Source of the DNA: an uncultured Methanosarcinaceae archaeon
GTDB lineage: Archaea > Halobacteriota > Methanosarcinia > Methanosarcinales > Methanosarcinaceae
Direction of reading: 5' to 3'
NCBI GenBank assembly: GCA_963847185.1
Contig: CAWJYV010000001.1
Location: forward strand, 1-64,000
DNA length: 64,000 nucleotides
Shown: positions 8,704-45,909 of the stretch, one piece after another
Layout: each line of letters opens with the position of its first letter
How positions within the stretch are numbered: position 1 is the first letter of the stretch
Notes under the pieces: generated by a model
The model's input: only the letters and a program-made list of their open reading frames with translations
Database searches by the model: none
What the model was told of the DNA's origin: nothing
Made by a program: the position numbers and the translations under genes

Positions 8704-9174
8704 CTAAACATATTAGATATAAACCAATATACTTCGCCTCGATAATAATGGTTTGTTCGTTTCGATAAGAACAAATTATAAAATGTTTCTTTCAGGATAT
8801 GTTTAGTACTATGCCAGATTTAACGTATCCCAACCCGTTTTACGGATCTCCAATAATTTGGGAGATATAAGTGCCTTAGAAGAAGCTAAAAGCTTGGCTG
8901 CAAGGCTTAGCGTGGCTTCCAGTAATAAGTATGTAGAAGGTTCGGGAAATATTCAGGATGCGATATCCTCAATATAGTGTTTTTAGTGTCACCTCTGAAT
9001 TTTATGCGTTTAGTTTAGCCCTTCCATAAAAACAACATACAGAAGCCTAATTCATTTCTAAAAACAACTTTAGTTAAAAATTAATCAAAAACAAAAAGTA
9101 CTTTATGATGTGACATGCATCAATATTATCGACTTTTTGATTGTTACACAATCAATCTTCTAGGGAGTCTAATC

Positions 9175-10977
9175 ATGCCAGAGCATCAGCAAACTCAAAA
9201 GTCCACAGAATCACAAACTACTTTTCAAAAGCAAGTGACCCCCACAAAGCAGACCCTCATTTCAAACCCGATGACTATCATTCAGCGTGCCAGAATCAAC
9301 CCTAAATCTCTCACCCACGCGGACGTAATGCAACTACAGCGCACTATTGGGAACAGGGCAGTTGGTACGTTGCTGTCAGAAATTGGGCTTATTCCTTCAA
9401 AGGCTGAGCAGGCACCGCTTGTTCAGATGCAGACAATACCTGAGGATGTATCAATTTGTCCTTCTTGCTTGCAGAAGCAAGAAATCAAAGAAGAGAAAGA
9501 ACCGCTTCAAGGCAAAATGATACATCCTCTTCAAAGGCAAGAAATTCCTGAGGAAGAAGAGCTTCTTCAGAGAAAGAGGGAGAACCGCACAGGCATGCCT
9601 GATAATTTGAAAGCTGGCGTGGAAAACTTGTCCGGGATAAATATGAGTGATGTGAAGGTGCATTATAATTCAAATAAGCCAGCAGAAGTCGGAGCTTTGG
9701 CGTATACTCAGGGAACAGATATTCATGTAGCTCCAGGGCAGGAGAGGCATTTGCCACATGAAGCGTGGCATGTGGTGCAACAGGTACAGGGTAGGGTTAA
9801 ACCGACAATGCAGATGAAAGGGCTTGGCATTAGCGATGACCCGTCGCTGGAGCAAGAAGCCGATATGATGGGAGAAAGGGCAGCACATATGAGGCTTGGT
9901 CCTGCTCCTTCGCGAGTTACTAATGATCATAAAGGGTTGGACATGGCAACCTATGAATCAGAAGGTATTGTGCAACGTATGCACGCCGTCGGAACCGATG
10001 TAATCATGGAACCTGAACCTGTTGGAAAAACGCACTGGAAAATGGCAGACAAAGATACGAAAGGCCTCGGTGACGAAGTAGATGATATTGTTGGAGTTAC
10101 TGGGATTTTTCAGGGGCCCTTTACTAAGATTCGGGTGGACACACTGAATATGTGGCGTGCCCATGGGGTGGCTAAAAGATTTGGTGGCTCGGGAAGAGCC
10201 GACAATGTGGGATGGTGGCCAGGTGACATTGAAGAACAGTGGGGTTACGAGGAATGGAAAGTAGCCGGTGTTAAAAACGAAGACCATGGATTGAGCAAAG
10301 AATGGGCAGTTGGACAAGGTGAAACAGGGGAGTATCATGTTAACCGCACGCTTTTGGATGGAGAGACAATCTTGAGACAATACAGAAACCCGATCATCTC
10401 TGCCATTAACTGGGGATATAACAATGATAGGGAAGCATGGCGGCAAGTAATTGAAAACTGTGGAAAAATGAATAGAGAAGATATTGCAACAGATAATATG
10501 AAAGAATTGAATGCTTATAAGGCCCAAATGATGGACTCAGATATTAATGTCATTAATCAGTGGTTTGAACAATATTTCAGACCTTCTGCATTTTTGGTTA
10601 TTGGAAATATGACTCTGCGTTACACCGAGATCACTGCAGGAAAAAACCAAAGACCCGGAGTAAAAGAATGGCAACGTAAGGATACGCATATCGTAGGGGG
10701 TAGACCATGGAATGGACGCCCAAAGGAGAATCCCAGTTACCCACGAAACGTTGAATACACTGCCACTAATTCCAGTATTGCAAACTTATGCATCATTACT
10801 AATAATCAAGTCATTTGGGAAGCCCTTGTAAAATCTGAAGCCATTACGCCTTACCATGGGATACCGGCACCTAGGTTGGAAAATGTAGAACGTATAAAAC
10901 TTTGCGATAAAGAAGGAAATAATATTAATTTTTATCCCAAACGCTGTATCTCTGGATTTGGTATAGAGATTCCATAA
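9175..10977 (+). CDS. DUF4157 (eCIS-associated core) protein with a putative C-terminal nuclease/toxin region
   Basis: LQRTIGNRAV, GALAYTQGTDIH, HLPHEAWHVVQQ, LEQEAD. C-terminal RAHGVAKRFGGSGRADNV. Probable start MPEHQQ at 9175. Confidence 0.85.
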   Translation: MPEHQQTQKSTESQTTFQKQVTPTKQTLISNPMTIIQRARINPKSLTHADVMQLQRTIGNRAVGTLLSEIGLIPSKAEQAPLVQMQTIPEDVSICPSCLQKQEIKEEKEPLQGKMIHPLQRQEIPEEEELLQRKRENRTGMPDNLKAGVENLSGINMSDVKVHYNSNKPAEVGALAYTQGTDIHVAPGQERHLPHEAWHVVQQVQGRVKPTMQMKGLGISDDPSLEQEADMMGERAAHMRLGPAPSRVTNDHKGLDMATYESEGIVQRMHAVGTDVIMEPEPVGKTHWKMADKDTKGLGDEVDDIVGVTGIFQGPFTKIRVDTLNMWRAHGVAKRFGGSGRADNVGWWPGDIEEQWGYEEWKVAGVKNEDHGLSKEWAVGQGETGEYHVNRTLLDGETILRQYRNPIISAINWGYNNDREAWRQVIENCGKMNREDIATDNMKELNAYKAQMMDSDINVINQWFEQYFRPSAFLVIGNMTLRYTEITAGKNQRPGVKEWQRKDTHIVGGRPWNGRPKENPSYPRNVEYTATNSSIANLCIITNNQVIWEALVKSEAITPYHGIPAPRLENVERIKLCDKEGNNINFYPKRCISGFGIEIP

Positions 10978-11027
10978 GGAAATTATTAAAAAATAGGTAT
11001 GCACCATAATGTTCCCTATTGTTTGGA

Positions 11028-11285
11028 CTACAGAAGACCTGAAAATGCAGAGGAAATTGTGGCACGTTGAACACCTGTTATTTTTTCAATATCCCGTGTA
11101 GTCAGTGGTTTTTTATCTTCTAACCATGCGTTATACAACGCTTCTAATATACGGAACTTTAAGAAATTTGGTTTATGAGCGTACCCGATTTTCACGATAT
11201 TTCTCACCTGAAAGATTTGTGTGAAAATTAATATCGGGAGCCTCGATAATAAACGTTTGTTCGTTTCCGTTATCGATAGGCACAA
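11028..11285 (-). pseudogene. Truncated winged-helix paralog 2
   Basis: Nearly identical to the N-terminus of 63084-63710 (KIGYAHKPNFLKFRILEALYN); ends after ISSA. Confidence 0.8.
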
Positions 11286-11536
11286 TAAATATTAATAGGG
11301 TTACTCAAACACTATTTTCAGTATATGATAAAGCAAAGTTTCGACTTTTTGACTTTACATTTATCCCTGTATAATTCCCTTAATACAAGTTCTTAAATCA
11401 CGGAGATATAAATTGCCTAAGAAAAGTATTTACGCTTGGCTGCGAGGCTTAGCGTGGGTTGTGGTAATAAGTATGTAGAATAGAGGTCAGGTAGGATAAA
11501 CTATCATTATTACTCATACTTTTACAGACCTTTCAA

Positions 11537-16932: not shown

Positions 16933-17069
16933 CAAGCAACGAGATACGTTCGCGCCAAATCCTTCTTGCCTTTTTCAACTCTCCCAGAGACTCCACACTT
17001 AATTAAAAGCAGCTTCCTTACCTCTTTTATCATGAAAGTAGTGCAGGTGTTACAGATTATTAAAAGGCG

Positions 17070-17640
17070 CCAGCCTTCCACAGATCCCAGAAACCTCTCC
17101 GATAACTCAGATCTGAGTCATCGAGGAAACGTAGTCGTAAGGCTATAAAAAAGTGATGATATAGAGTATCCATTTTACTAGTTTTAATTATGTTGTGGAA
17201 CCTGTAGGGATATATTTAGTCCATTCTTACCCAAGCGATAGCCGTGGCCTTTGTACGTGGCTTCTAGGTATATGTGCGTGGAGATGAAGGAATAAACGTA
17301 CTGCGTCAGCCTCCCACAAATATCCCAGAATCAGAGCCGCTACACGGGATTACTTTTAATTATGCTTGTGAAACCTTCTAGGATATTTGGTCCATCCTTA
17401 TCCTAAACGAGGGTCTTAGCCTTTGTACGTGGCTTCTAAGTATATGTGCGTGGAAATGAGGGATGGACTTACCGCGAGCCTTCCATATATCCCAGAAGCT
17501 TGCAGAGCGCTTTATTGTCATTAAATCCCTTAATTACGGGGATTCCAGATTTTGGGAGATATATAAGTGCCTAAGAAAAGAATTTACGCTTGGTTGGGAG
17601 GTTTAGCGTGGCTTCTGGGATATGTATGTGGAAGGCTCAT
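17070..17640 (+). repeat. Cluster of three fold-back repeat units (types A, B, C)
   Basis: Each unit starts AGCCTTCCA..ATCCCAGAA and ends GTGGCTTCTRGG..ATGT..GTGGA. Unit A carries the palindrome at 17099-17124. Confidence 0.85.
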
Positions 17641-18014
17641 GTGTAAGTGCTACAAACATACCTGTTTCTTGCAGTGGATGCGACAGCACATCTTTATTAT
17701 ATTAAGTAAAAATAGAAGGGATATTTTAAAATCCCATTATTTAATTCACTATTTTTTTGCTCTGGTAGGAAATATCAATATCATAAAATGAAATCTTATT
17801 TTACCGAATTCCAATTTTCCACACCCCCCTTATTGAGTTATTATATATTTTCTTTAAGTGTTTGGGTTTTAGTTGATGGTGGTGTGGAAAACCATTAACA
17901 TGCCACCTAATAGGCATTAGTCCGTTACTAAAAATTAAATCATATTGTATAAATCACTTCGTATTTAACCCTTAATTATTTATTCAGTATCTTATTCTCA
18001 CTATGCAGTAAACA

Positions 18015-18122
18015 ACCGCGCCAGCCTTCTATATATTCCAGAAGCTTGCATAGCACTTTATTGGCATTAAAAATCCCTTATTACACGGCTTCCAGAATTT
18101 GGGAGATAAATGCCTTGGGAAG
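18015..18122 (+). repeat. Partial type C repeat unit
   Basis: CAGCCTTCTATATATTCCAGAAGCTTGCATAGCACTTTATTGGCATTAAA matches 17477 onward and 27750 onward. Confidence 0.8.
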
Positions 18123-18792
18123 ATATGTACGAGGTTTGTACGCCTTTAGAGCCTTAGTTTGACATTATAAATTCAATTTAGTGAGAAGCCTCAATTTTTA
18201 GTCAAAAATCAATTGACAGTATTCATAAATTTCATCAAATTGCCTTTGATTTTCCAGCTTCACAATCACTATAAGGCAAATGAGTAGAGATTTTTGTCCT
18301 ATTTTAGCACTTTTGGCACCTGACTTTTTGGATAGTATCTATATTTTATCTGCTATTCATGCTATCTGTCAAATTCTATACCAAAAATTTGATTAAAAAT
18401 TATGAAAATAGCCATCAGGAGAAAGAGAATCATCTGTCAAATTGAATTGTAAAAAATGGCAAAAATTTGTTGATATAATATTACTTATTATTCCAACGGA
18501 TATGAAAACAATCTTTAAACATAAAAATCAAACTGTCAAACTCAGGTTAGAGTGGTAGGAGGCTCGGGATAGACTGTAAAAATAGCTATTCTTGATTCTC
18601 GATAGGGATAAAAGAATTTCCGACCTCACCGATTCGTGGATTCTGTATACGAGGCTCAAGTAATTCCCTTCTCTATCGGATAAATTGGTAGGCTAAGGAA
18701 GTCTTATAGATCGTTTTGACATTGACGAAGAATCAAAGTACGAGGATTATTTAATTTTAAGACAGCCTCTATAGAGGAATCTTTTCTTTTTA

Positions 18793-21700
18793 TTAATTTA
18801 TAGGGATATAAACTGGACAACATTTTTCTTTGACTTCAGCTGGGGTGAGATTACCAAGATCTTTTGCCATTTCCTCATACATTAAAGGCGAATATTTCTT
18901 TATTATTAAAGCGTTACTCTCTAGAAGTGATTTTAGCCTTTCCCCCTCATATTCTTTTATTTTTTGAAGGATTCCAATGAATGTTCGAGATTCCTCATTA
19001 ATTTTATTCATTTCTTTTTGTATAATAGCTGTAAGAGTATTCTTCGTTTCCAAATCATCATCAATAAGTTCTTCAATATGTGATATTCTTTTTTCAATTT
19101 TATTTTTCTTTCTCTCAATTATTTCTTGCTCCTCTATTATAGGCACCCATCGAGTACTCATCGCCATTTGTCCCTGAGAGATATCTCTTGCAGAATTAAA
19201 TTCTGTATTTATTGAAGCAAGTAATATAAATTGTTCACAAATTTCATCTATTGGTCCTTTTATAGCTTTTTTGACCTGCTCCTCATGAAAATGTTTATTG
19301 AGAGTCATGAGCAGGCCTGAAGAGCCACCATTTATCTCGCCTTCAAAAGAAAAAATACCATTTGCCATAATATATGTTTTATTCCCTGGTGATTGAGGAT
19401 TGTCAAGGTTTTCTATAGCAACCTTATAAAAACGGTTTGTGTTAGGATTAGTTTGCGGAATCAGTAATATATCACATTTATCTAAGAAATGGATTCTTAA
19501 TTTATCGTCCAGATATTCGAAACAGATTAGAATTCCTAAACTCAATCTGTCAGTAATTTTGAATATATGTTTCAGTTCTCCTTGATTCATACCTTCCATA
19601 TTAAGGAATTCACGCTCTACTCCTGCAGGCAACAGTTTTTCACTATGTACAATTTTAGATGAAGGTATCACCACAGGACATATATTCTTCCGCAGATCCT
19701 CACTTCCAATATCTGAAGCAAATAGATCTTTGTATTCATGAAGGTTTGCTTCTGTCACATAATGAGAGCCTGCAACCACCACTATCCTATTTTCATTGGC
19801 ATATTTTTGAATTTTAGGCAGAAATTCAAAAGGGATTGAGAATTCGGGAAATACTATTATCTTTGCCTTCTCTTTTACTGCATCAAGAATGTAGCAGATC
19901 TTCTTCCAGTAATTTTCTTTTGCTTTTCCAAGATTATTCACTTCTTCTTGTTCTTGGGATTCAAATTCGTTCTTATATGACTTGTCAAATGCCAGTTTAA
20001 CAACTTTTTTGTCCTTGATTATATCATATTTTAACTGAATAACTGCAATACTCAAAATATCATTTTTGATTACGATATTGTTCCTACAATCATGTTCCAA
20101 AATGCAGAATTTCAAATTAGGCTCTAAATATTCATTGTATTCTATATGTCTTGTAACTGACTTTTCATACATTGTAGTTTTAAAAGTGATTTTCCCCTCT
20201 ATCTTCGTCGGGGTGTGATGAATATAAAGTTCTTTCTTCCCGCGAAGGGGCTCCTCAAATATCTTCACCCCTCCAGCTTCTATCGTTAAAATGCCTTTTA
20301 TTTTCTCTGGATCTGCAAATTTGATCCTGAGTTTCCAACTACTATACTCAATATCGGGACTGAAAGGTTCTTTCAAGTACTCAGTCAGTTTCTGTGTAAG
20401 TTTTTTCCCCGCATGATCAAAAATCGTCCTGACTGCAAAAGAATCAATTTTCAAAATCTGGTCATTTAGTTTATTTCTAATTTCATCTTCATCTTTGTTT
20501 TGCTTATTCTCCAAAAGTGAAATAATCTCCTCGAATGCTAAAAGTACACTCAGATTTGCAGATGTTGATAAATCCTTACGAAGTTCATCTACAATTTTTT
20601 TGATAGATTCTATCTTTAAATCACTTTCATTTTCCAGACTCTCAATACTTTCCACTTCAAGAATTCCTGCATAAATGCAATAACAAACAGTTGCTTTTTC
20701 ATAGACTATTTTTGCCATTTCAAACTCTTTCTTTGCTTCTTTAATCAGCTCTATATTGGGGTTTTCAAACATAAGTGATTCGCTGATTAGTTTTCTTCCA
20801 CGAAGATAACATAATGCGGAAGCAAGCAATTCTTTATTTTTTTCTTCTTTTTCAATCTTTTCCAATTTTTCTACTGCTAAAATTGATTTTTCGTATTCTT
20901 GTATGCGTTTATTTGGATCTTTCTCTCCTACTATATTTTTCATCAAAAAATCCAAGTATGCCCTTAGCCCAGCCTCTAAAGCCAGATTTCCTTCGTGATT
21001 AAGATTGTGTTTTTTAAAGAAATCTCGGTTTTGCTTGCAGACATTAATCCCTTCTCTTAAGAAATTCATCTCATTATGTATATTTGTTTCAATCTCGGCC
21101 AGTTCCATTAGTGATCTTATTATTCCAATAGTAGCCTGAGATTTCTTGCCTGCAATCAAACGTTGCAAGGACTCATTATAGATTTCTAACGTCTTTTCAT
21201 CACAAATTTTTAATACTTCTTCATATCTTTCTTTAGCCTCTTTGCTTTTTTTCATATCGAAAAGCAAGGCTCCTAGGTTATTGAGAGTCTCTCCAACATT
21301 TAGCCGATATAATATATTTTTGTAATCTGTTTCTAGGAGACTTTCCCTAATTTGAAATGACTTCTCATACATCTCCTTTGATTTCTGAAATAGCTTCATA
21401 TTATAAAGTAAAGTTCCAAGATCATTGAGCGTTTCCGCAACATTAGATTGATACGCTAGATTTTCAGGGTCGGATTTTAGCAATGATGTTCTAATTTCCA
21501 ATGCCTGTTCATGCCTTTTTTTTGCTTCTTTGTTTATACCCTGGTTCGTAAGTAAAGTTCCGAGACCATTAAGGGTTTCTGCAAAATCTGATTGATAGGC
21601 TATGTTTTCAGAGTCTATTTCTTGAAGTTTCTCATAAATTTCTAGTGCTTTCTCATACTTTTGCTGCGCCTCTTCCATATGGCCCATATTGTTAAGCAAA

Positions 21701-25764: not shown

Positions 25765-26450
25765 TCCACATCTCCCAGAAACCTCTCCGCTAACTCAAAT
25801 CTGGGATATCGAGGAAACATAGTTGGATGGCTATAAAGAAAGTGATGACAAAGAGTATTCATTTTACTCGTTTTAATTGCGTTGTGGAGCTGTCCGGGAT
25901 ATATTGGTCCATCTAGCTACGAGCGATAGCCTTGGCCTTTGTACGTGGCTTCTAGGTATATGTGCTTAAGGATAGATGTGCCAGCCAGCCTTCCACATAT
26001 CCCCGAATCAGAGCCGCTACACGGGATTACTCTTTTTTCACTTCTTATGTAGTCTGTAGGGATATATTGGTCCATCCGGTTACGAGCGATAGCCCTGGCC
26101 TTTGTACATGGCTTCTAGGTATATGTGCGTGGTTAGTATGTTTCTTTAGGATATCCCAGAAACCTCTCCGATAACTCAGATCTGAGTCATCGAGGAAACA
26201 GAGTCGGAAAGCTATAAAAAAGTGATGATATAGAGTAGTCATTTTTCCATTTCACATGTAGTGTCAGGGATATGTTTAGTCCATCTGGCTACGAGCGATG
26301 GCCCTGGCCTTTTAGATTAGCTTCTAAGTATATGTGCGTGGAGGATTCGGGATAGATGCACTACACCACCTTCATCACATCCCATAAATCTCTCCGATAA
26401 CTCAGATCTGAGTTATCGGTAAACGTTATCATTTGGCTACAAAAAAGTGC
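25765..26450 (+). repeat. Cluster of fold-back repeat units (A, B, A, partial A)
   Basis: Same arms as 17070-17640. Palindrome copies at 25787 (degenerate), 26168 and 26394 (perfect 26 bp). Confidence 0.85.
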
Positions 26451-27994: not shown

Positions 27995-28328
27995 GATAGT
28001 GGGGAAAAAGTTCGTCGACTGCTCTTTTGGCAGCAGAGGAACAGAAACTGGACAACAACTCTGGGAAAAATTAGAGAAGAAAGAGATTGAAAAGTGATGA
28101 CTGATCACTGGAGGGCATATGAAGAGTTTCTTCCAGAAAAGGTTCATACTCAATCCAAAGCAGAAACGTATACTGTTGAAGGATATAACAGCATATTAAG
28201 GCACTTTCTGGCAAGATTGAGGCGAAAGACAAAGTGTTATACTAAGAGTATTGAAATGCTATAGTACCCGGTTATTCTCTTAATGAAATAAATAAATAAT
28301 GAGTAAACTATATTTAATTAACAATGCC
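27995..28328 (+). mobile_element. IS1-family fragment (InsB-like 3' half)
   Basis: MTDHWRAY...VEGYNSILRHFLARLRRKTKCY with stop codons; right end ...AACAATGCC. Homologous to 42355-42691. Confidence 0.8.
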
Positions 28329-28732
28329 ATAAATAGTTAATAAACTTTTTGTAAAAATTCAAATATTTAACAATCTGAACAGTTAGTATCCATGCTTTTT
28401 AGTTTAAGCAAGAGAGAACTCTGACAATATTGCAGAAAAGAAATTCAGTGCCTCTATTTTTTTACTTTAATAAGTCTCTTGATATTGATAAAAATAATTG
28501 TATGGAATTTGATTTCTTTTTCCAAAAATGGTTCAAAATTTTTGAAAACTAATAAATGATAAGAATGATTTATTCTACTTATTTTATACAAACATAAGTA
28601 TTATAATTTTGTAATAAAAACCAACGATATTAGCTGCGCATCTTTGTTTTTGAAAATCAGTCTTTTGCTTACGATTCTCAGTAACTGACACAACTAACTT
28701 ACACTTTTAAGGAAAATAAAGGGAGAAAACAA

Positions 28733-33412: not shown

Positions 33413-34036
33413 TTAAGCAGACTCAGCTTCACTACTAAGTTGCCTTATACGATTTTCCATGCGTAATATATGTGTTTCCTTATCGAGCCCATGCTCTTCA
33501 TCAAACGCTTTACCCATTTGCGTCATTGAATAATACGGCAGTAGTTGTGAAGGTAGTAGATCAAAGTCTTCCAGTGTCCGTAGTTTGCGCTGTGGGTATT
33601 TCCCGTAGGCTTCCATTCGCTGAACTTTACCAACCCGTTTCAGACTAACTCCCCGCCTAATTCGGTGTAAATAGGCTACATATGCTTCTATACCCTTCTT
33701 TGTGATCTTATACCTGTAAAGTCCATTAGGTCCTTTCGCCTCTAATCGCTGTATATAAGGCAGTTTTATTATCTTACCACTTCTTTTGTGAACCTTCTGA
33801 TACCGTGACATTGCACTCGAAATTGTGGTACGTTGAACACCTGTTATTTTTTCAATGTCGCGTGTAGTCAGTGGTTCTTTAGATTTAAATAAAGCTTCTA
33901 GGATACGGAACTTCAAAAAATTGTTCTTATGAGCATATCCCAATGCAGCTATGTTATCACCTGAAAGTTTTATGCATAAACCAATATCTAGAGCCTCGAT
34001 AATAAAGGTTTGTTCTTTTCCGCTATTGGCGGGCAC
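33413..34036 (-). CDS. Winged-helix DNA-binding protein, paralog 3 (true start probably downstream of the ORF start)
   Basis: HKNNFLKFRILEALF...PLTTRDIEKITGV...GPNGLYRYKITKKGIEAY. Confidence 0.75.
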   Translation of the reverse strand: MPANSGKEQTFIIEALDIGLCIKLSGDNIAALGYAHKNNFLKFRILEALFKSKEPLTTRDIEKITGVQRTTISSAMSRYQKVHKRSGKIIKLPYIQRLEAKGPNGLYRYKITKKGIEAYVAYLHRIRRGVSLKRVGKVQRMEAYGKYPQRKLRTLEDFDLLPSQLLPYYSMTQMGKAFDEEHGLDKETHILRMENRIRQLSSEAESA

Positions 34037-34069: not shown

Positions 34070-34240
34070 TTCAGGATATGTTTAGTACTGTGCCGAATTC
34101 AGCTATCCCGTACCCGTTTTACGGACCTCCAATAATTAAGGAGATATAAGTGCCTTGGAAGGGGCTAAACGCTTGGCTGCGAGGCTTAGCGTGGGTTGTG
34201 GCAATAAGTATGTAGAATAAAGATCCGATAGGATAAAAAC
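34070..34240 (+). repeat. Type C right-half repeat upstream of the wHTH gene
   Basis: GTGCCTTGGAAG...GCTTGGCTGCGAGGCTTAGCGTGG...AATAAGTATGTAGAA; also at about 8870, 11410 and 63830. Confidence 0.8.
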
Positions 34241-35404
34241 GAGATTGGAGTGGTTGCCTTCACGCTACTATTTTACAAAATAAACCATGGGATACCTTAT
34301 TTTATAGACATAATTGTTTGCATGTCTGAGTTCCATTTATAGTACAAATGTGGCTAAAAATATGAAGCAATTATTTAACAACGTTTCTAGGGGAAATCTT
34401 CTTTTAAGGGTAAGAAGTCCAAAGGTAATCATATTCACCCGACTCAAGAAAAATCCTGGCTAAGAGGAATACAGAGCCAATATTCGAGGTCATTTTGGTG
34501 GGTGTAGGTCTGCCTATGTAGACGTTGTCAGTTTGTAAAGTCTAGACCTTAGTTTCCTGTCCAGTGATATTATCCTGTAAAAAGATTGTCCTATAACTTA
34601 TCCCGTTCTACTTATTTTTTCATTCCAATAACTTAGCCTGTTTTACTTATTTTTTTCTATGTCACTTAAACTTCTATTTGGATAATTTAGATCTAGAGAA
34701 AAACACTGAAGTAGTAAAGTTTGGATATTGAAAGAGTCCTGAAAGAGTAATACAACTTTTTTTAAATATATGTGTATATTTCGAGTTTTTAAATTGAGTT
34801 TAATTAGAAAATAAGGTATATTAATTCCATAAATGCCTCACTTGTACTATTAAGGTCTTTTTTTTGCATAAAAGCTTGAATTATGGACTAAAACTCCTTA
34901 TTTTGCTGAGGGATTTCTTGATTTAAATCTAATAATAAATATAAAAGTATGTATATTATTTAAAGCCCTGTTAGTCTAATTTTTAAAAGCCTATTAATAT
35001 TAAGTAAAAGTAATTCTATCCATTTTATATAATTATGAATTATATATTAGGTTGTACTTTCTGGCAGCTAAGATCAAATGTGTCCTCTCCAACAAAAGTA
35101 AGTAACCAGAAAAGTTTCTAAATGCGATTGCCAAGAGTAACTATAGATCTGAGGAGTAGATAAATAATTTTTATTAGAGGATTATATGTTCAGTGTATAC
35201 TATGGATAATTATACACTCCATATCCATCATACTCTAATCTTAAAGCTTTGTCTTCTCCTAGATATAAAACAAGTAGAAAGTACAAGTGCAAAAAGAATA
35301 CAATAAACTAAAAATATAAAAATTTAAAAATAAAATAAAAATATAAAAACTAAAAATATAAAAATTTGATACATAAAAATATACTAAACATGGGGGTAAA
35401 ATAA

Positions 35405-35665
35405 ATGTTCGGATTTGGTGGATTTGGTGGATTTGGTAGAGGACGTGGGTTTGATCGTGGATTTGGCTTTGGCGGCTGCGGTGGATGTGGCGGAGGCTGC
35501 GGTGGCTTTGACGGTGGCTGTGGCGGAGGCTGTGGACCAAGGGGAGCTTGCGTAACAACCGTAATTCGTAGAGTCTGCGCCATAGGTGGCAGGGGCGGCT
35601 GTGGCAGGGATGGGTTCGACGGGACTTCGACGGCGGCTTCGACGGGTTGTTTTAATAACCACTGA
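35405..35665 (+). CDS. Gly/Cys/Phe-rich small protein (86 aa)
   Basis: MFGFGGFGGFGR...GGCGGCGGGCGG; GC-rich island with GGGGT RBS; paralog on the opposite strand. Confidence 0.7.
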   Translation: MFGFGGFGGFGRGRGFDRGFGFGGCGGCGGGCGGFDGGCGGGCGPRGACVTTVIRRVCAIGGRGGCGRDGFDGTSTAASTGCFNNH

Positions 35666-36702: not shown

Positions 36703-37590
36703 GAGCGTGTCTGAATATTATATTTTTCTCATTCGCTTAACGTTTTGATACGACTCAGTCGTCTAATCATTATGTGTATCATCGCAGCATATACCAACGC
36801 TTGACTTGATTCTGTCAAACCTTCGTAATCTTTACTCAAACGTCGATATCGACCCAGCCATGCAAATGTCCTCTCTACAATCCATCTGTGAGGAAGTACT
36901 TTAAAGCCTTTGACATCTTCACTACGCTTAACTATTTCCATCACCCATCCACACATTACATTGACCCAATCAACCAGTTTACCCGAGTAACCAGCATCAG
37001 CCCAAATAAGCTGCAATCGAGAAAATCTTCCCGTAACTTGTTCCAGAACAATTTTAGCCCCATCTCGATCCTGAATATTTGCTGCATGAACTACAACTAT
37101 TAACAGTAGCCCTATTGTATCCACCAGAATATGGCGTTTTCTCCCTTTTACTTTCTTGCCAGCATCATAACCGCGTATTCCGGGTGTTTCTGTGGTTTTA
37201 ACTGACTGGCTATCTAAAATCGCTGCACTCGGCTCTGGTTCTCTGCCATACGCAACTCTCAATTCCGTTCTCAATGCAGCATTGATATGTTCCCAAATTC
37301 CTTTAATCCGCCAAAGGCGGAAATAATGGTAAACAGTTTTCCATGGTGGAAATTCGTGGGGTAACATTCGCCATGCACAACCAGAACGTAACAAATAAAA
37401 TATGGCATTCAATATTTCTCGATAGGAATGAATGCGCTTTCTACCTCGATTCGTTCTGGGATTCTGGAAATAAAGCTTAATTAATTCCCATTCTTTATCG
37501 GTTAAATCACTAGGATAAGAAAGGCTTCTAGATCGTTTTGGCATTGGCGAACAATCAGGTTATAGGAATATTTAATTTTAAGACAGGCTC
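36703..37590 (-). mobile_element. IS5-family (IS1031-like) insertion sequence
   Basis: TIRs GAGCGTGTCTGAA and TTAAGACAGGCTC; TTA on both flanks. Confidence 0.9.
36729..37544 (-). CDS. IS5-family transposase
   Basis: YPSDLTDKEW, GCAWRMLP, LDSQSVK, GRKRH, ADAGY, RWIVERTFAWL...RRLSKDYE. Confidence 0.95.
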   Translation of the reverse strand: MPKRSRSLSYPSDLTDKEWELIKLYFQNPRTNRGRKRIHSYREILNAIFYLLRSGCAWRMLPHEFPPWKTVYHYFRLWRIKGIWEHINAALRTELRVAYGREPEPSAAILDSQSVKTTETPGIRGYDAGKKVKGRKRHILVDTIGLLLIVVVHAANIQDRDGAKIVLEQVTGRFSRLQLIWADAGYSGKLVDWVNVMCGWVMEIVKRSEDVKGFKVLPHRWIVERTFAWLGRYRRLSKDYEGLTESSQALVYAAMIHIMIRRLSRIKTLSE

Positions 37591-37935: not shown

Positions 37936-38037
37936 TTAGCATCCTCCACAGCCGTCGCAGCCGCCAAAGCCGCCGCAGCCGCCAAATCCACAGCCGCCGA
38001 ATCTACCGAATCCACCAAATCCACCAAATCCGAACAT
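37936..38037 (-). CDS. 33-aa Gly/Cys/Phe peptide MFGFGGFGGFGRFGGCGFGGCGGFGGCDGCGGC
   Basis: Translated by hand. First 12 aa and upstream region are shared with 35405-35665. Confidence 0.7.
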   Translation of the reverse strand: MFGFGGFGGFGRFGGCGFGGCGGFGGCDGCGGC

Positions 38038-38689
38038 TTATTTTACCCCCATGTTTAGTATATTATTTTAGATTTTTTATTGTGCTTTTTCTTATTCTTA
38101 TTTTCTCTTATTTTCTACTCTTTTTTCTACTCTTTTTGCGTAAGGAGAAGACAAAACTTTAAGATTAGAGTATGAAGTGGGCATACGGCCCTCTAATCAA
38201 ATTTTTTATCTATTCCTCAAATATATAATTACTTCTGGAAATCGTATTTGGAAAATATTCTATCACTTCCTTCCGTCTGGAGAGAACAGATTCAAGTTTA
38301 ACTGCCAGAAGTACAAGTTAATATATAATTCTCGAATATATAAAAATAATAGAATATTTTTTACTTAATATTAATAGTCTTTTAAAAACTGAGCACATCT
38401 GACGTTAAAAAAGCGAAGTTACTTTTATACTAATTGGCAGATTTAAATCCTTTAAGATATCCGCTAAAATGAGAAGTTTAGTCCATAATTCAAACTTTTA
38501 CACAAAAAAAAGACCTCAACAATATAAATAAGGCTTTTACGAGACGAATAAATCCCTTTTTCGAATTAAAGCCAATTTAAGGGGTTAAAATACACATATT
38601 TAGTAAAATAAGTTGTATTACTTCTTCATCACTCTTTCGAGATCTGAACTCCATGACTTTATCATAAAGGAAGTAAAGATTACGGGTTT

Positions 38690-38800
38690 AAAGTATTCAT
38701 TTTACTCGTTTTAATTGCGTCGTCGAGCCGCTCGGGATATATTTTTGTCTATTTGACTATAAGCGATAGCTTTGGACATTGTACATAGCTTCTCAGCTAG
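38690..38800 (+). repeat. Partial type A repeat (right half)
   Basis: AGTATTCATTTTACTCGTTTTAATTGCG...GGGATATA...AAGCGATAGC...TTGTACATAGCTTCTC. Confidence 0.7.
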
Positions 38801-38936
38801 AGTACGGACCAAGATTATCATATAAAAATAAACATTTTAAAAAGATTTATAATGTATAAATAACTTTAAAGAGTAAATATAAAAGCATTTTTAAGCTGAT
38901 AAACTATCCATAAAAATAGAAATATCGAGGGTTATC

Positions 38937-39335
38937 ATGAAAGACTTAGAAGTGAAAATGTTGGACGAAGAAGACCATATTTTTATTGAAACGTTAAGGA
39001 ATCTAGGAATGTCAAGAAATGTCGCTACAACCATGGCATATCTTATGAATGTAGACGAATCTTCAGCCCGGGAAATTGAAATAAGTACTGGATTAAGGCA
39101 ACCCGAAGTAAGTCTTGCAATAAAACTAATGCACAACCAATCCTGGATCAGTGTGCGCTCGGAAAAAAATCATGGAAAAGGACGGCCGACAAAGATTTAT
39201 TCTCTTGCAGCTCCGGTTGACGAGGTCATAAGTTATTACGAAGACAAGATTTACAAAGAATCTCAGGCAACCGTCTCGGTGATCAAGAAGCTTAAAATGA
39301 TGAGTAAAAGTATGCTTTCTACTCCTTCAAAGTGA
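38937..39335 (+). CDS. Archaeal HTH transcriptional regulator (ArsR/TrmB-like)
   Basis: SAREIEISTGLRQPEVSLA...GKGRPTKIYSL. Confidence 0.85.
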   Translation: MKDLEVKMLDEEDHIFIETLRNLGMSRNVATTMAYLMNVDESSAREIEISTGLRQPEVSLAIKLMHNQSWISVRSEKNHGKGRPTKIYSLAAPVDEVISYYEDKIYKESQATVSVIKKLKMMSKSMLSTPSK

Positions 39336-39454
39336 AGGATTTCAAATGGGGTTAGCTCCATAATGGCTGACAATCCTTTTTGGGGATTCACTATTATGGA
39401 AAATTAAATTTCTCCGGAATTCTCATTTAACTTTTCTATCTGCTCATCCTTAAT

Positions 39455-39832
39455 GTGGAGCCTTTTGGGATATATCTTGGTCTATTTGGCTACAAGCGAT
39501 AACTGTGGCCTTTGTAAGTGGCTTTTAGATATATGTGTGTCTTCAGGATAGATATGCTGCAATATATCCCAGAAACCTCTCCGATAACTCAGATCTGAGT
39601 CATCGGTAAACATAGTCGGAAGGCTTTAAAGAAATGCTGACATAGAGTATTCATTTTACTCGTTTCAATTGCTTTGTGGAATCTTCAGGGATATATTGGT
39701 CCATCTGGATACGAGCGGTATCCTTGGCCATTGTACGTGGCTTCTAGGCGTATGTGCGTGGAGGCTTCGCAAGATACTCGACAGTGCCAGCCTTCCATAT
39801 ATCCCAGAAACCTCTCCGATAACTCAGATCTG
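39455..39832 (+). repeat. Cluster of fold-back repeat units (right half, A, partial A)
   Basis: Palindrome copies at 39581-39606 and 39816-39832; junction hairpin at about 39739-39812. Confidence 0.85.
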
Positions 39833-40094
39833 GAACCCCAAAGAGAACCTGATCGACTACAGGTCTTAGCACAGGAACACTTGGAAATCTAAAGTATATC
39901 GGGAAAAAAGATAAGGCGAAGAGGCTGAAAAATTGGGGTTGACACGGACAGAGTACAGTGATTATTGGTTGGACTAGAGAAGGAGAAGAAACAGAAAGTA
40001 ATAAATACAAAATGTAAAGCCACCATTGAAGCAAAGAAGAGGGGAGCTATAATTTGACATTTCTAGTTATGAGGTAAAACGTTGCTAGTTACAC

Positions 40095-40718: not shown

Positions 40719-41497
40719 TTTAAAACAGCTAACTCAAAATCTTTTCTATTTTACCTTTATGAAATTGTTGTCTCAGCTGTTCTAAAAATCGATTATAGCC
40801 ACAAGGCCAAATAATGCAACTGCTATATGAGAACAAAGTGGTTTCTATTGCACAATTACAGGCGTGACTATATCTAATAGTAGCCGTATTAATTTGAAAG
40901 ACAACAATTTATATTAATTTTCTATTTTGGGCAGTCCATCATTTATTGATTGATATTATTCCAAATAATCGAAATACAGTTTCCAGCTCATTTTTTCCAA
41001 CATTTTGGCGTTGCTGGGATCAGCTCTCTGTACAGTATATAAATGCAAGCAAAGGCCGTGTTGGAGAGAATATGATGAAAACATCGACCAAGTATTAGTG
41101 GACGACCTGTGAGCTTAATTTATCCAAAAACAGCAATATGTAATATGGAACAGCACTATCATTTTAACAAAAAACGCATCATTACCCTTTATATACGAGC
41201 TGAAAGAAATAATAAATTGTCTTTCTGGATTGTTGACTGCCATAAAATTACCAAACATTTGAAACCATTGTCCGCGTATTGTTGTCTTATGCGGACACAT
41301 ATTATAACGCTTTGCGAGAAGAGAACACCTCAAAAGATGAACCATAACTTCTCGTAAAGCTTTCTTCAAGGCTGTCCTTAATTTCCATTGGGCAGCCAAT
41401 TCTGTTTTTATAAAAATACGTTCCTTCTCTCTTTAATGATCGGGATAATTAGAATTAAGCCTTTCATTGCCAAAGGCAAATATCAGGGAGATTAGAA

Positions 41498-41577
41498 TAC
41501 GATAGCTAGCGCCATTTAGCGTTGCTTCTGGCACCGTCTACGAGATAAAGTTGGGAAAAAGAGCAAAAAAATTATTC
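41498..41577 (+). repeat. ~80-bp direct repeat, copy 1 (copy 2 at 45830-45909)
   Basis: TACGA..GCTAGCGCC....GT(T/G)GCTTCT.G.....CTAC.AGAT.AAGTTGGGAAAAA.AGCAAAAAAATTATTC. Confidence 0.8.
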
Positions 41578-41695
41578 GTCCTTCTTCATGCAAAACAACT
41601 ACAGTCTTCAATAATTTTATTTATTATAAATACAGTTTTCCTACATTCTAACTCAGAGATAAAAAGCTTGAAGTGAAAAGGAGATCTATTAACTA

Positions 41696-41836
41696 ATGAA
41701 AAAATTTGAGTACAAATGTGTCCCTATTCTGAAAATGGGAAAAGGTACCACAAGGGAACTTAATGAATATGGTGCAGAGGGATGGGAACTTGTCTGCGTA
41801 TGGGCTTTCTGGCATTATTTGAAAAGAGAACCTTGA
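41696..41836 (+). CDS. DUF4177-like small protein (46 aa)
   Basis: MKKFEYK...LNEYGAEGWELV...YLKRE; RBS AGGAG upstream. Confidence 0.75.
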   Translation: MKKFEYKCVPILKMGKGTTRELNEYGAEGWELVCVWAFWHYLKREP

Positions 41837-41844
41837 GAAAATCT

Positions 41845-42216
41845 TCCAATAGCTTTTTCACTTCCTCTCGTATTAGTGGAAGCATTACAGATTTTTCCAT
41901 AACTCCACCACCTAAAATAATGCGTTCTGGCGATAATATGCAGATATAGTTAGTTAATGCAAGTGCTATATAATGTGCTTCCAATTCCCAAGCTGGATGG
42001 TTGTCAGGCAATTCCTCTGCAGTTTTTCCCTATCTTTTAGAAATAGCTAGTCCGGAGGCTAAGCCCTTCAAAACAATCATTGTGATATCGGCACAAACCT
42101 TCAAAATGGTCTTATCCCCGATCGTGCAGAATTATAGATATGTCCCATCTCAGGATGAACTAATCCATGCGTTAGTTTACCATTTATCATACCGCCACCA
42201 CCAATTCCTGTGCCAA
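41845..42216 (-). pseudogene. ROK-family (fructokinase-like) sugar kinase fragment
   Basis: GTGIGGG, HPEMGH, CFEGLASG and SPERIILGGGVM across broken frames. Confidence 0.8.
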
Positions 42217-42219
42217 TAG

Positions 42220-42691
42220 TCAAGTAAATAAAATGAAATTTGGTCAGGAGCTAGAGGAACTGAAAAGCGAAAATGAGATCTCTATTGTTGAAATGGATGA
42301 GATGCACACTTACATCGGTAACAAAAAAAATATTGCTGGATCTGGATTGCTGTTGATAGAGTTGGGAAAAAGTTCATCAACTGCTCTTTTGGCAGCAGAG
42401 GGACGGAAACTGGACAAAAACTCTGGGAAAAGTTAAAGGAAAAAGAGATTGGAAAAGTGATGACTGATCACTGGAGAGCATATGCAGAGTTTATTCCAGA
42501 AAAAATTCATACTCAATCAAAAGCAGAAACTTATACTGTTGAAGGATATAACAGCATATTAAGGCACTTTCTAGCAAGATTGAGGCGAAAGACAAAGTGT
42601 TATACTAAGAGTCTTGAAATGCTAAAGTACTCGGTTATTCTCTTAATAAAATACAGAAATAATGAGTTAACTATATTTAGGTAACAATGTC
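42220..42691 (+). mobile_element. IS1-family fragment (5'-truncated)
   Basis: EMDEMHTYIGNKK, an A-run, then TDHWRAY...VEGYNSILRHFLARLRRKTKCY. Confidence 0.8.
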
Positions 42692-42764
42692 AAATTTTTA
42701 TAGGGAAAAGAAACTATATATGAGATACTGTATAAAAAATATGATAAAGATGAAGAGAAATAAG

Positions 42765-45371
42765 ATGAAAACCAACCAAAAGTTTCATTCGATAGTGGTA
42801 GCATCAACAACTTTGATTTTATTTTCAATTCTAGTTTCATCTACGGTATCGGCATCTAAACCTTCTCATGATCAAAATACTTCTCTATCTATTGCAGGCC
42901 CATATGTAGGCTCTCTTGTATATGACTCTCCGGCATCTGGAGTAAATAATCAATACGGTCTCGATACAGGGAAACAGTCCAGAATAAGGCAGAATGGATA
43001 TATTAATGGGGTACAATTTGCAATCGCTAATGCAAATAAAGTTAACAGGTTCAATGTTTGCATTTGGAGAAGAAACGATGATACTGGTAAATATAACCTG
43101 GTTGCAAAAAGTAACAATCTAACTCCTGATATTACAACTAGCGGGATCCAAAATATCCTTCTTTCCACTCCATTATACGCACATGAAGGTGACTATATTG
43201 GATGGGAAGCAAATTCAGTAGACACTACGAATATAATTGTGACATCTAAAGTTCCAGCAGGAACAACTGATGCTAAAATTCATTGGGGTACAGCTCGTAC
43301 TTTCTCAGTTGGCGATGAATACGACTTTGTAAACTCTTCAACTTACCATATTTCTAATAAAACATATCGTTTAAACGTGTTTATGGGTGCAGTAGACACT
43401 GCTTTCATAGGGGATTCGGTGGTCTCTGGTAGACCCGTACATACATCCTATGTGGACCCGGCTGCTTATTACAACCCCTGGTCATCAATGTCTTATTGGT
43501 GGGGTCTTTACTCAGGTAGGACATACCAAAACCTCGGGTGGAAAGGACAAACTACAGCTGAAATCAAAAATAGATTCTACGCAGATGCAATTGCTCTACA
43601 TCCGTCAAATGTCTTCATTGAAGGTGGGTTAAACGATTGGGCATATTCGATCAATAAGACTACAACTCTTTCAAATTTGTGCTGGATGGTAAACGAAACG
43701 GTAGCTAATGGAGCACACGCCTATCTATGTGAGATTCCCCCGTCTACTGGAAGCGGGAATGCTATAAATTGGGCAGACTGGCAATGGATAAATAACCGAT
43801 TAAAAACGATTTATGCAAATAATTCAAGTGTTACTTTAGTTCCAATTAGAAATTATGTTGGACAGAAATATGCTTATGGTCCGGCTGGCAACCTGTGGGC
43901 AATAAATACTGCCTATGATGGTGGAGATGGCCTGCACTATAATATTGCAGGGTATCAAAAATTTGCATCTGTCATTTACAATTATTATTCAAATAGGTAT
44001 ACAGCAGATGTGATAAATGGAACTGCACCACTGCCGGTTCACTTTTCTACACTGAGACCCGCAATATTAAACTCATCTCTTCCAACTCTGGCAGGGTGGA
44101 GCAGGTCAGCAGCAATCGAACCCGCAACAAATATCTCTTTAAGTGAGTACATTTACATTCCAAAATATCCAGATATGAAAGCCGATAGTAGCGACATAAG
44201 GTTCTTCCTAAGTAACGGAATGATTCTTCCTTCTCAGTATCAATCAACCTCATCCGGAGTATATTTCATTTACAGATATGCTCATCCAGCAAACACTCCA
44301 GTATATTGTGCGTGGGGGAATAACAGTGCTCGCAATCTGACCCAGGTTACATATTTCGAGGATGGGGAAAGCACTGCAAACTGGAAAAACATGTCAGGCG
44401 GTAAGATTGAATCATCCACGGCGAGAGTATACAGCGGCAATCATTCCTTCAAATATACAGACCTATCTGCTACTACATATAATGATGACTGTACATTTAT
44501 GTTGCCTGTAAAGACAACTAATGCAACTGTAGAGTGGTATGCAAACCCAAGTCAAAACAACACATACTCGATGCTTACTATTTTAGACGGAAATGCATCT
44601 CTTAAGAAAGGACCTTGGACTGTATTCGGAAATAATGGACAGATTCAATATTGGAATAGAACAGGATATAAAAATATAAAAAGATATTCAGCAGGCAACT
44701 GGTATCATTTCAAATTGGTGGTGAAATCTGGAACTAAATATGATCTGTACGTGGATGACACTCTAATAGCAAGCGGCATCAACACATTAAATCCAGCTAC
44801 AGCCTATGATAGAGTAGTGATTTTTGGATATAATGTCGCTGGCAGTTCGTGTTATTATGATAATATTAATATAACAGTACCGGTAGGCTCAGTTGCAATC
44901 ACTTCTAACATTTCATATTTTACAATTCCGTCAACATCTCTTCCAAATACATATTCGTGGAACTTTGGAGACGGAACTGATTCAACCGAGCAGAATCCAA
45001 CGCATACTTACTCAACAGCAGGAAACTATACAGTTAACCTGACAGTAAAGAATGCAGTGGGCAATAATACGCTAACGAAATCTAATTTCATTAAAGTAAC
45101 GGCAAGCAATACGACTACGACATCAAAACCTGTTGTAAGCTTCTGGGGATCGCAAACCTCAGGAAGGGCTCCTCTTACAGTTACTTTCACAGATGCAAGT
45201 ACAAACATACCTATAGCATGGAACTGGAGTTTTGGAGACGGAACATATTCAACAGTTCAGAAACCAAAACATATATACTCAAAGGCAGGAAACTATTCAG
45301 TAAAGCTTACAGCAAGCAATGCTGCCGGAAGCGGAACATTAACCAGATCTAATTATATAAAGGTAGCATAA
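42765..45371 (+). CDS. Secreted SGNH/GDSL hydrolase with lectin-like and two PKD domains
   Basis: Signal peptide; FIGDS, NLG, GGLND and DGLH blocks; WNFGDG and WSFGDG PKD repeats. Confidence 0.85.
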   Translation: MKTNQKFHSIVVASTTLILFSILVSSTVSASKPSHDQNTSLSIAGPYVGSLVYDSPASGVNNQYGLDTGKQSRIRQNGYINGVQFAIANANKVNRFNVCIWRRNDDTGKYNLVAKSNNLTPDITTSGIQNILLSTPLYAHEGDYIGWEANSVDTTNIIVTSKVPAGTTDAKIHWGTARTFSVGDEYDFVNSSTYHISNKTYRLNVFMGAVDTAFIGDSVVSGRPVHTSYVDPAAYYNPWSSMSYWWGLYSGRTYQNLGWKGQTTAEIKNRFYADAIALHPSNVFIEGGLNDWAYSINKTTTLSNLCWMVNETVANGAHAYLCEIPPSTGSGNAINWADWQWINNRLKTIYANNSSVTLVPIRNYVGQKYAYGPAGNLWAINTAYDGGDGLHYNIAGYQKFASVIYNYYSNRYTADVINGTAPLPVHFSTLRPAILNSSLPTLAGWSRSAAIEPATNISLSEYIYIPKYPDMKADSSDIRFFLSNGMILPSQYQSTSSGVYFIYRYAHPANTPVYCAWGNNSARNLTQVTYFEDGESTANWKNMSGGKIESSTARVYSGNHSFKYTDLSATTYNDDCTFMLPVKTTNATVEWYANPSQNNTYSMLTILDGNASLKKGPWTVFGNNGQIQYWNRTGYKNIKRYSAGNWYHFKLVVKSGTKYDLYVDDTLIASGINTLNPATAYDRVVIFGYNVAGSSCYYDNINITVPVGSVAITSNISYFTIPSTSLPNTYSWNFGDGTDSTEQNPTHTYSTAGNYTVNLTVKNAVGNNTLTKSNFIKVTASNTTTTSKPVVSFWGSQTSGRAPLTVTFTDASTNIPIAWNWSFGDGTYSTVQKPKHIYSKAGNYSVKLTASNAAGSGTLTRSNYIKVA

Positions 45372-45829
45372 GGACCATATAAATGGGTTGCAAATTTCTG
45401 GGACCACTATCCCAGAATAAGCAGCCTTGAACCTAAAAGTATTAATTACTTGAATGTTTGGGGTATAATATCCTATTTTATGATATATCAAAAGAAGTAG
45501 AACCAGACAAGGTTTGAATCTGGATCTTAAGTATTTATATCAACCCTAGTTCAGGATATTATGAAAAGTAGTAGCTTGAGAGTTAAATTTCCTACAAAAC
45601 AAGAAAAGCACTCCCAGTCTGGACTTCTGATATTTTTGTGATTAAAAGGACAGCCATCCAGCTTCTTGCTGAGTTTATGGGAAGGTAAAAAATAAGGCTT
45701 GTAGGTGTAGGGGTTTCAAGACTAAGAGAAAGAGATGCAAGGCAGACTTTGATTACGGATTTTTAAAGTATTTTCGGGATCATTCAATTCCAGACATTGG
45801 ATTTGGATATAACTGCAAGGAAGTCAATT

Positions 45830-45909
45830 TACGAGCGCTAGCGCCTATTACAGTGGCTTCTAGATAGGCCTACAAGATGAAGTTGGGAAAAAAAGCAAAA
45901 AAATTATTC
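45830..45909 (+). repeat. ~80-bp direct repeat, copy 2
   Basis: Matches 41498-41577 and contains the GTGGCTTCTAG core. Confidence 0.8.

Follow-up and report, generated by a model that had tools for sequence, protein, structure and literature searches.

The window analysed here, which comprises the first 64,000 nucleotides of contig CAWJYV010000001.1 (assembly GCA_963847185.1) from an uncultured Methanosarcinaceae archaeon, contains a family of repeats lying between blocks of accessory genes, together with one intact and one frameshifted gene for a tyrosine integrase. The initial annotation of this DNA had placed such repeats at fourteen positions and interpreted them as an integron-like cassette array; profile and motif searches find a member of the family at all fourteen, with every copy in the window on the plus strand. 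The repeat family is real, genus-restricted, non-coding, modular, polar, intergenic and new. It is not an integron, a label that fails its defining tests. The window has a GC content of 0.359 and belongs to a genome of 4.04 Mb in 10 contigs, the large ones with about 0.40 GC. This source genome is denoted G000 and its contigs C1-C10, with other G numbers for the genomes of relatives and L numbers for extracted loci. A profile of the ~251-nt unit was built with nhmmer in three rounds and run on the genome contigs. The sites of the window and the integrase-associated genes are the following.

6336-6370, plus strand: I-type site with core CGTGGCTTCTAA, about 100 nt past the stop codon of the frameshifted integrase and sharing 93% identity with the copy at 61251-61285.
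6453-7756, minus strand: tyrosine integrase, frameshifted (open reading frames (ORFs) 6453-6908 and 6893-7756), from ORF and family searches.
7832-8086, minus strand: small ORF of 84 aa, paired with the integrase and without a family match.
8158-8703, minus strand: winged-helix paralogue, always adjoining a type-A module (weak HTH_34 match).
8833-8943, plus strand: type-A module with the core at its end (8911-8922), by profile and motif.
11371-11480, plus strand: type-A module beside a helix-turn-helix (HTH) gene fragment (11028-11285), by profile.
17041-18151, plus strand: cluster of two C+B units, a full type-A unit (17496-17638) and a solo arm1 with the start of A (18006-18151), by profile and motifs.
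25771-26483, plus strand: four tandem units without intervening cargo, by profile.
27680-27912, plus strand: half B core, junction and full type-A unit, by profile.
34112-34217, plus strand: type-A module upstream of an HTH paralogue (33413-34036), with the integrase absent here, by profile.
38678-38806, plus strand: B core with arm2 replaced right behind the core, 131 nt upstream of an MreA-family regulator (38937-39335), by profile.
39453-39840, plus strand: cluster of a partial unit, a full C+B unit, a junction (39737-39813) and the start of the next unit, by profile and fold.
41480-41580, plus strand: D variant (diverged B core plus core), abutting a run of A that is an oligo-T run on the minus strand, by profile.
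45815-45912, plus strand: D variant, which with 41480-41580 encloses a 4.3-kb block absent at the matching place in G061, by profile.
61251-61285, plus strand: I-type site, located about 100 nt behind the integrase stop, by motif.
61369-62673, minus strand: intact tyrosine integrase of 434 aa, of classical type and not IntI according to family models.
63084-63710, minus strand: HTH paralogue of the integrase module, by family search.
63789-63899, plus strand: type-A module with the core at its end (63872-63883), by profile and motif.

A unit consists of a conserved linker followed by arm1, module C, the B core and arm2, the opening of which is a 12-nt core. In the window, arm1 (CCTTCCAYATATCCCAGAA, at most 3 mismatches) has 8 matches against 0.03 expected and arm2 (GTGGCTTCTAGGTATATGTG) has 7 against 0.00, while the core (CGTGGCTTCTAG, at most 2 mismatches) matches 13 times in one orientation against 2.23 expected, a count reached by none of 100 shuffles; these core matches include 6344, 8911, 41520, 45852, 61259 and 63872. 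A further box, GGCTTCTGGGATAT, has 11 matches against 0.38 expected, 2 direct and 9 inverted, and a de novo repeat search of the window recovers pieces of the family in groups of 5-8 copies. Arm1 and arm2, each about 20-26 nt long, form imperfect reverse complements, as first described, and as terminal inverted repeats they enclose both the C+B interior and a second one, type A (17496-17638, 27770-27907), a shorter form of which sits upstream of the winged-helix gene family. Module C has an 11-bp palindromic stem around AGATCT (e.g. 26394-26419) and, by eye, a TATA-like stretch; the palindrome had been credited to type A, and is a real hairpin that belongs to the C module in the present naming. 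The D sites are diverged B cores, and the I sites place the core behind the integrase stop, so that B, A, D and I modules all share the same 12-nt core at their end. Site sizes range from 60 to 290 nt. A reading of the units as coding sequence was rejected; open frames occur in the profile consensus, but the copies differ by 1-2-nt indels.

Modules are exchanged at sharply defined positions. Among 58 arm1 matches from G000, parts of G061 and other loci, nearly all are preceded by the same linker, and the sequence right after arm1 (...CCCAGAA) is the C module in 19, type A in 14, a short connector in 9, B directly in 6, a C variant in 4 and something else in 4, with 2 chance matches. The switch falls exactly behind the last base of arm1, with at least five alternative modules, and at least six different right-hand sequences follow the core. 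The available text of PMC8371274, PMC4158269 and PMC11602168 does not describe such a family, and the archaeal lists of MITEs (miniature inverted-repeat transposable elements) that supplement the last of these may contain it.

The family reaches beyond 8790-45909, the interval first assigned to it, along C1 to 197 kb and onto further contigs. Over G000 the profile yields 63 unit matches on six contigs (C1 33, C3 8, C4 5, C5 7, C10 9 and C8 1, the last weak) and none on C2, C6, C7 and C9, in addition to 16 type-A and 3 D matches. When unit, type-A and D matches are merged, with I sites left out, 53 clusters result, none of mixed strand, and orientation switches in 3 of 47 neighbouring cluster pairs (binomial P = 1.2e-10). 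On C1, 22 plus-strand clusters (8.8-128 kb) are followed by 5 minus-strand clusters (182-197 kb); four tRNA-Cys genes lie within 1.8 kb between the two (C1:147043-148817). The unit-bearing stretches have a GC content of 0.363-0.381. Their genes are ordinary accessory ones, including PAS kinases, major facilitator superfamily (MFS), Nramp and ABC-2 transporters, alcohol dehydrogenase (ADH), glycosyltransferases and regulators, and most blocks between clusters are mutually unrelated, as had been noted for the window. A replication-strand bias finds no support: on C1 the units run against most of their neighbouring genes, on C4 and C10 with them.

The survey of other genomes covered 59 of the genus, G000 counted, and 16 from other genera of the order. 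Many of these assemblies are incomplete, and misses are therefore not taken as absences. The C+B unit is found in 26 of the 59 and in none of the 16, and type A in 11 of the 59. Boxes of 19-31 nt are identical across species and in 33 metagenome loci. Unit DNA has no match in plasmid and phage collections; an 18-nt box found at 5 loci in viral contigs, none with a unit, was set aside as a chance match.

One explanation of the family is that it is a selfish, non-autonomous repeat resembling a MITE, a bacterial interspersed mosaic element (BIME) or a BOX element. Arm-bounded units would then have been moved in trans and have landed in or beside earlier copies to form mosaic arrays, with shuffling as a by-product of homologous recombination. 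The arms bounding both interiors suggest this, as do solitary arm1-arm2 units (e.g. C1:85493-85684 and C3:4570-4744) and the fact that most unit-bearing genomes are without the integrase. The genus also has many other short dispersed repeats, and according to a MITE census a Methanosarcina species is one of the archaea richest in MITEs (PMC11602168). Three such repeats of G000, profiled alike, served as control families; they number 104, 54 and 44 copies and are spread over 8-9 of 10 contigs. Their orientation switches at 75 of 95, 22 of 45 and 20 of 36 neighbouring pairs, respectively, and their strands are about equal for the two largest and 28/16 for the third, although the palindromic ends of the 104-copy family may make it score on both strands. 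A nearest copy of at least 95% identity exists for 26 of 91, 7 of 48 and 2 of 10 control copies, but for 0 of 24 units (median 82.7%, maximum 89.4%) and 0 of 14 type-A copies. Since its switches are few and its copies regionally clustered and never near-identical, the repeat family is unlike the MITEs of the same genome.

Other expectations of a transposed element also fail. Target-site duplications, which the initial annotation had listed as a sign against recombination sites, are not seen at the repeats, and the unit flanks are conserved linker, not random DNA. A parent insertion sequence (IS) was not found, with all non-chance arm1 matches lying inside units and no transposase between arm pairs. 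Inter-genome comparisons, made at species level, revealed no unit-sized presence/absence polymorphism, though this is seen for a true MITE of the 104-copy family: the ~118-nt element at C3:8128-8245 (L072), with 14-bp perfect terminal inverted repeats, is cleanly absent at L050:13740 in an otherwise 96%-identical metagenome contig, a textbook case. An IS200/IS605 origin was rejected; the part of C1 rich in repeats does contain two Y1 transposase genes, but the hairpins at the ends of their elements are unrelated. A TnpB-type origin was also dropped, the single clear match (C10 at 621 kb) being distant from units. Taken with its supports, the selfish-repeat explanation is possible but somewhat unlikely. 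Short dispersed repeats are seen elsewhere too, with at least four further families of about 110-210 nt at C10:105298-107016 and C10:109070-109190 (L079), one of which, 200 nt long, has about 40 copies in the closed genome G047, and the genus seems unusually rich in them.

The structure of the repeats bears on two further explanations. The bulged fold-back hairpins of about 70 nt that had been proposed correspond to arm2-linker-arm1 junctions between successive units, and they find no support: folded as single-stranded DNA, eight junctions give z scores of -1.20 to +0.28, all eight no better than shuffles, with -0.16 for 39737-39813. Moreover, about 17 of 54 distinct junctions, counted by eye, lack most of arm2's distal half but retain arm1. 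RNAalifold returns no consensus pair for 71 B cores (75 distinct copies collected, three over-long and one poorly aligned dropped), and a candidate second B-core stem has 79.4% of cells paired versus 78.1% in shuffles. The C-module hairpin, by comparison, is real and its stem is maintained by compensatory changes. Its single-stranded DNA folds reach z scores of -6.0 and -3.5 in two of five copies, and 5 of 10 pairs show compensatory changes, with 30 double-change cells versus 13.6 in shuffles (0/500) among the 34 of 45 distinct copies tested, the other 11, palindromic too, having been omitted because they were extracted with an offset. Six U-G pairs are compatible with the plus strand only. 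Because neither junctions nor B core show a supported fold, the family is conserved as sequence apart from this one small hairpin; such conservation without an RNA fold in the B core fits protein recognition of DNA.

A true integron would comprise an IntI-type integrase, an attI site and attC hairpins recombined as folded single strands. Co-oriented sites between cargo and the presence of a tyrosine recombinase agree with this scheme, and integrons have reportedly been found in archaeal genomes from metagenomes. Judged by family models, however, the integrase of the window is of the classical archaeal type and not of the IntI type: it scores 41 bits against TIGR02249 (cut-off 265) and 16.5 against PRK15417 (cut-off 435), its best family match is archaeal XerA (86 bits, cut-off 220), and integrases of archaeal pleomorphic viruses and a tailed virus share 30-36% identity with its catalytic half. 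The sites are conserved in sequence rather than in fold, the junctions do not fold better than shuffles and often have an arm half missing, and no RYYYAAC/GTTRRRY box was seen on reading the junction sequences, as the initial annotation had itself remarked. In addition, the cargo is multi-gene and on both strands, and the integrase is duplicated and interior to the arrays. An integron is, on these grounds, extremely improbable.

Another explanation is that the repeats are host cis-elements, either regulator-binding platforms (for instance for the adjoining MreA-family and winged-helix paralogues) or small-RNA genes, which spread with neighbouring genes by duplication. Copies from different species (75-88% identity) are as alike as copies within a genome, while the intergenic flanks of shared blocks cannot be aligned between species, and selection on the repeat sequence is therefore suggested. 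The B core also keeps its place beside orthologous genes in other species: in G013 it adjoins ADH, in G006 and G022 a histidine kinase, and in G009 an MreA paralogue. Without exception, type A is found about 110-160 nt upstream of HTH paralogues. At least three MreA-family genes (window 38937, C1:96503 and C3:32957) have, about 131-143 nt upstream, a B variant that ends at the 12-nt core, and the arrangement of a B core with replaced arm2 beside such a paralogue recurs at C1:96178-96370 and C3:32641-32814. The covarying C hairpin, with U-G pairs that fit the plus strand only, and the TATA-like stretch of module C point the same way. Yet the units are spread almost evenly over the four classes of orientation relative to neighbouring genes (17, 13, 12 and 10), so that the two strands are unrelated, those genes are unrelated, and tandem arrays with strict regional polarity are unexpected for operators. 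The small-RNA form is further weakened by the B core, which has no consensus fold, and by Rfam, which has no match in the window at gathering thresholds. This alternative is quite unlikely. Group II intron fragments, C/D-box RNAs and origin boxes were likewise dropped, being without an Rfam match and with boxes not conserved. The MreA-family regulators are themselves expanded, with 8 paralogue matches (window 38937-39335, C1:96503, C1:99356, C3:32957, C5:15092 and others), the one in the window scoring 143.7 bits against a cut-off of 100, as would fit a relative of Methanosarcina.

Comparison of gene order between genomes indicates that the repeats probably mark places of block exchange. In L050, blocks that correspond to parts of C5 (87% identity), C4 (91%) and C3 (96%) of G000 are adjacent, with units at each joint. 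A block with a 153-aa gene is flanked by units in 6 genomes and has different neighbours in each. The stretch 41580-45886 of the window is missing in G061 between D sites, and a 1252-nt ADH block shares 94% identity with G013, with homology beginning exactly at the core.

The repeats might alternatively be passive relics, that is, functionless intergenic DNA that was carried along in tandem duplications of gene families and later rearranged through deletions and an inversion. On its minus strand, C1 has seven PAS-histidine-kinase paralogues (49.5-130 kb), six with adjoining units, and these are consistent with such a history, as is the duplication of the integrase-ORF-HTH-A module at 92.6% identity. 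All copies are old, and an inverted integrase copy precedes the minus-strand array at 182-197 kb, which is the arrangement that a large inversion would leave. Most blocks between repeats are nevertheless mutually unrelated, and functionless DNA would hardly be expected to keep boxes identical across species and in metagenome loci, sharp switch points and a C-hairpin stem preserved by compensatory changes. Passive relics are thus a very unlikely explanation.

The relation of the repeats to the integrase can be followed both at single loci and across genomes. C1 carries three integrase copies, one intact (61369-62673) and two decayed (6453-7756 and C1:178939-179859). I and A sites, which have about 30 nt in common, enclose the integrase-ORF-HTH modules. 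An I site lies behind the integrase in G000 (twice), G024 and G069, although not in G061, and a core-bearing site adjoins it in G000, G024, G069, G013 and G017. The closed genome G061 has 26 plus-strand unit matches at 831-883 kb with a 92%-identical integrase at 867 kb, and in G024 and G013 unit and integrase are on one contig. In G017, 4 matches to box GGCTTCTGGGATAT (0.12 expected) surround a 44%-identical integrase; they include a perfect inverted pair of 14 bp, and one of the copies is about 230 nt beyond the stop of the integrase. At L080:5032-5081 (G017 C3:47032-47081), 1.8 kb from this integrase, two perfect 14-bp inverted boxes 22 nt apart form a minimal fold-back. The integrase family at large is common, being present in 44 of the 59 genomes at E 1e-20, whereas the close clade (at least 70% identity) is confined to G069, G061 and G024, plus fragments in G042 and G013. 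Type A is found in 5 of 5 close-clade genomes, weakly in G069, versus 5 of 53 others. Contigs C3, C4, C5 and C10 of G000 bear units and no integrase.

The best single reading of these observations, held tentatively and at less than an even chance, is that the repeats are the recombination joints of an accretion-type flexible island. Co-orientation, switch points, block re-ordering and nearness of the integrase all speak for it, and to this extent the earlier suggestion of recombination or capture sites of a gene-accretion system stands, without its integron-like form. We infer both that recombination occurs at the repeats and which enzyme might perform it. The repeats sit co-oriented at the joints of unrelated blocks in a low-GC, flexible part of the chromosome, and recombination between two copies would loop out the intervening block as a circle or allow a new block to enter. 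Because the recombining copies are co-oriented, blocks could accrete and shuffle with the polarity of the array unchanged. The likelier candidate catalyst would be a site-specific tyrosine recombinase of the array-encoded clade (61369-62673), acting on ~250-nt attP-like sites made of short repeated boxes. This process would correspond to the tandem accretion of integrase-less blocks, as in tycheposon remnants and cis-mobilisable elements, and not to attC x IntI chemistry. As a fallback, ordinary homologous recombination might act across the longest identical boxes, arm1 and arm2. The more specific proposal is of a non-integron archaeal accretion system, in which the classical-type tyrosine integrase, the product of the small ORF (62752-62922) and the winged-helix protein string integrase-less blocks at ~250-nt attP-like sites sharing the 12-nt core, without a tRNA anchor, into polar arrays of more than 100 kb with metabolic and sensory genes. 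In this complete form the proposal is unlikely.

Several findings weigh against recombination joints of this kind. The initial annotation had proposed that co-occurrence with the integrase clade would test the idea, and the repeats prove to be largely independent of that clade: 21 of the 25 other unit-bearing genomes have no close integrase (the four that do are G061, G024 and, as fragments, G042 and G013), and at E 1e-20 an integrase homologue is missing from 6 of the 25, among them G050, which has 11 units. Conversely, G069 has the integrase but no C+B unit, neither the integrase nor the HTH protein is encoded at any of 45 metagenome or viral loci, of which 33 have units, and three of four loci with 35-44% integrase homologues are without boxes (those three at 35-43%). 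Kinship confounds such counts, and the close-clade genomes may simply be the nearest kin. Breakpoints also do not fall at a single nucleotide. At its far end the ADH block stops at its promoter, where no core is present. I-site breakpoints vary between genomes by up to 400 nt, with homology starting about 370 nt to the left of the core in G069, 0-40 nt to the left in G024 and about 50 nt to the right in G061. Near-identity between L050 and C3 begins about 35 nt inside type A, and at 80-89% identity homology is expected to stop near gene ends anyway. An MFS-MarR block keeps the same ends in genomes without units, and the cargo-less tandem units at 25771-26483 are unexpected for att sites. An attB was not found; a search for tRNA and tmRNA genes yields none in the window, and the sites match tRNA genes over 10-11 nt only (E at least 0.11). 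There is, in addition, no sign of recent activity, with unit copies all below 95% identity and one of the three integrase copies intact.

How methanogens of this genus assemble their large strain-specific gene complements is poorly understood, and the repeats provide a concrete, testable handle on the question. If the sites are recombination substrates, they would represent a new route of flexible-island assembly in archaea and possibly a tool to insert cargo in Methanosarcina; should they prove to be protein-binding or RNA elements, the accessory genes that they mark would make up a regulon-like set.

Among the cargo labels first given to the blocks of the window, Pfam confirms eCIS_core/DUF4157, TPR, EamA, a YNCE propeller and SGNH-PKD, but not nitrilase, HEPN, 'immunity' or 'fibre/effectors'. 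The TPR protein (18793-22608) has five 144-nt tandem repeats at 21406-22269, and the YNCE-type beta-propeller (28733-30517) five 126-nt repeats at 28940-29743. A 333-nt stretch, 91% identical, occurs at 27998-28329 and 42360-42692, just upstream of and running into the starts of two unrelated secreted-looking genes, those of the YNCE propeller and SGNH-PKD, and may be a shared promoter, leader or signal-peptide cassette. A 545-aa ORF at 3600-5237 is composed of periodic, Asn/Gly-rich repeats of 30 nt (10 residues) in at least 21 copies and has no Pfam match. An inverted duplication (34718-35498 and 37938-38650; 69% identity, ~790 nt) flanks an IS5-family transposase gene at 36729-37544. The interval 54543-55811, 55803-57158 and 57709-59118 holds a tRNA-guanine-transglycosylase-like gene (TIGR00449, 45.9 bits, slightly below the cut-off of 47.6) and a ParB-N-domain gene, with a DDE_5 transposase gene between them that overlaps the 5' end of the former; the pair is presumably akin to DpdA/DpdB-type DNA-modification genes.

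The arrays can be set beside several known systems. Like integron cassette arrays, which depend on attC x IntI recombination, they have a tyrosine recombinase and co-oriented sites between unrelated cargo, with imperfect inverted repeats where the blocks join; unlike them, they have an integrase that is not IntI-type, conserve sequence and not structure, carry genes on both strands and have no attI/Pc end. With MITEs the repeats share the properties of being short, non-coding, bounded by inverted repeats, intergenic and multicopy. However, the genome-wide spread, random orientation, near-identical copies and clean insertion polymorphism of same-genome MITEs are all missing from the family. BIMEs of E. 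coli and BOX elements of pneumococci are mosaic intergenic repeats that are scattered and not polar over 100 kb. The present family resembles them in having modules in variable order and number, a stem-loop module, an intergenic position and suspected effects on neighbours, but those elements have no tie to block boundaries or an integrase. The cis-mobilisable elements of streptococcal integrative and conjugative elements undergo tandem accretion at one attachment site, and features of att-based accretion are present here as well, in the form of a tyrosine recombinase within the array, co-oriented shared cores, and I and A sites bracketing integrase-ORF-HTH. In the tycheposon islands of Prochlorococcus, ~40-nt partial tRNA-gene repeats are described beside an intact tRNA (bioRxiv 10.1101/2020.12.28.424599). 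On that description the present arrays differ in having no tRNA or other attB, in their 60-290-nt modular sites, which also form cargo-less tandems, and in that most repeat-bearing genomes are without the integrase. They are alike in the co-oriented repeats between cargo, in the occurrence of intact, broken and missing integrases in one island, in newer elements pushing older ones inward, and in the confinement of the island to a flexible region (bioRxiv 10.1101/2020.12.28.424599).

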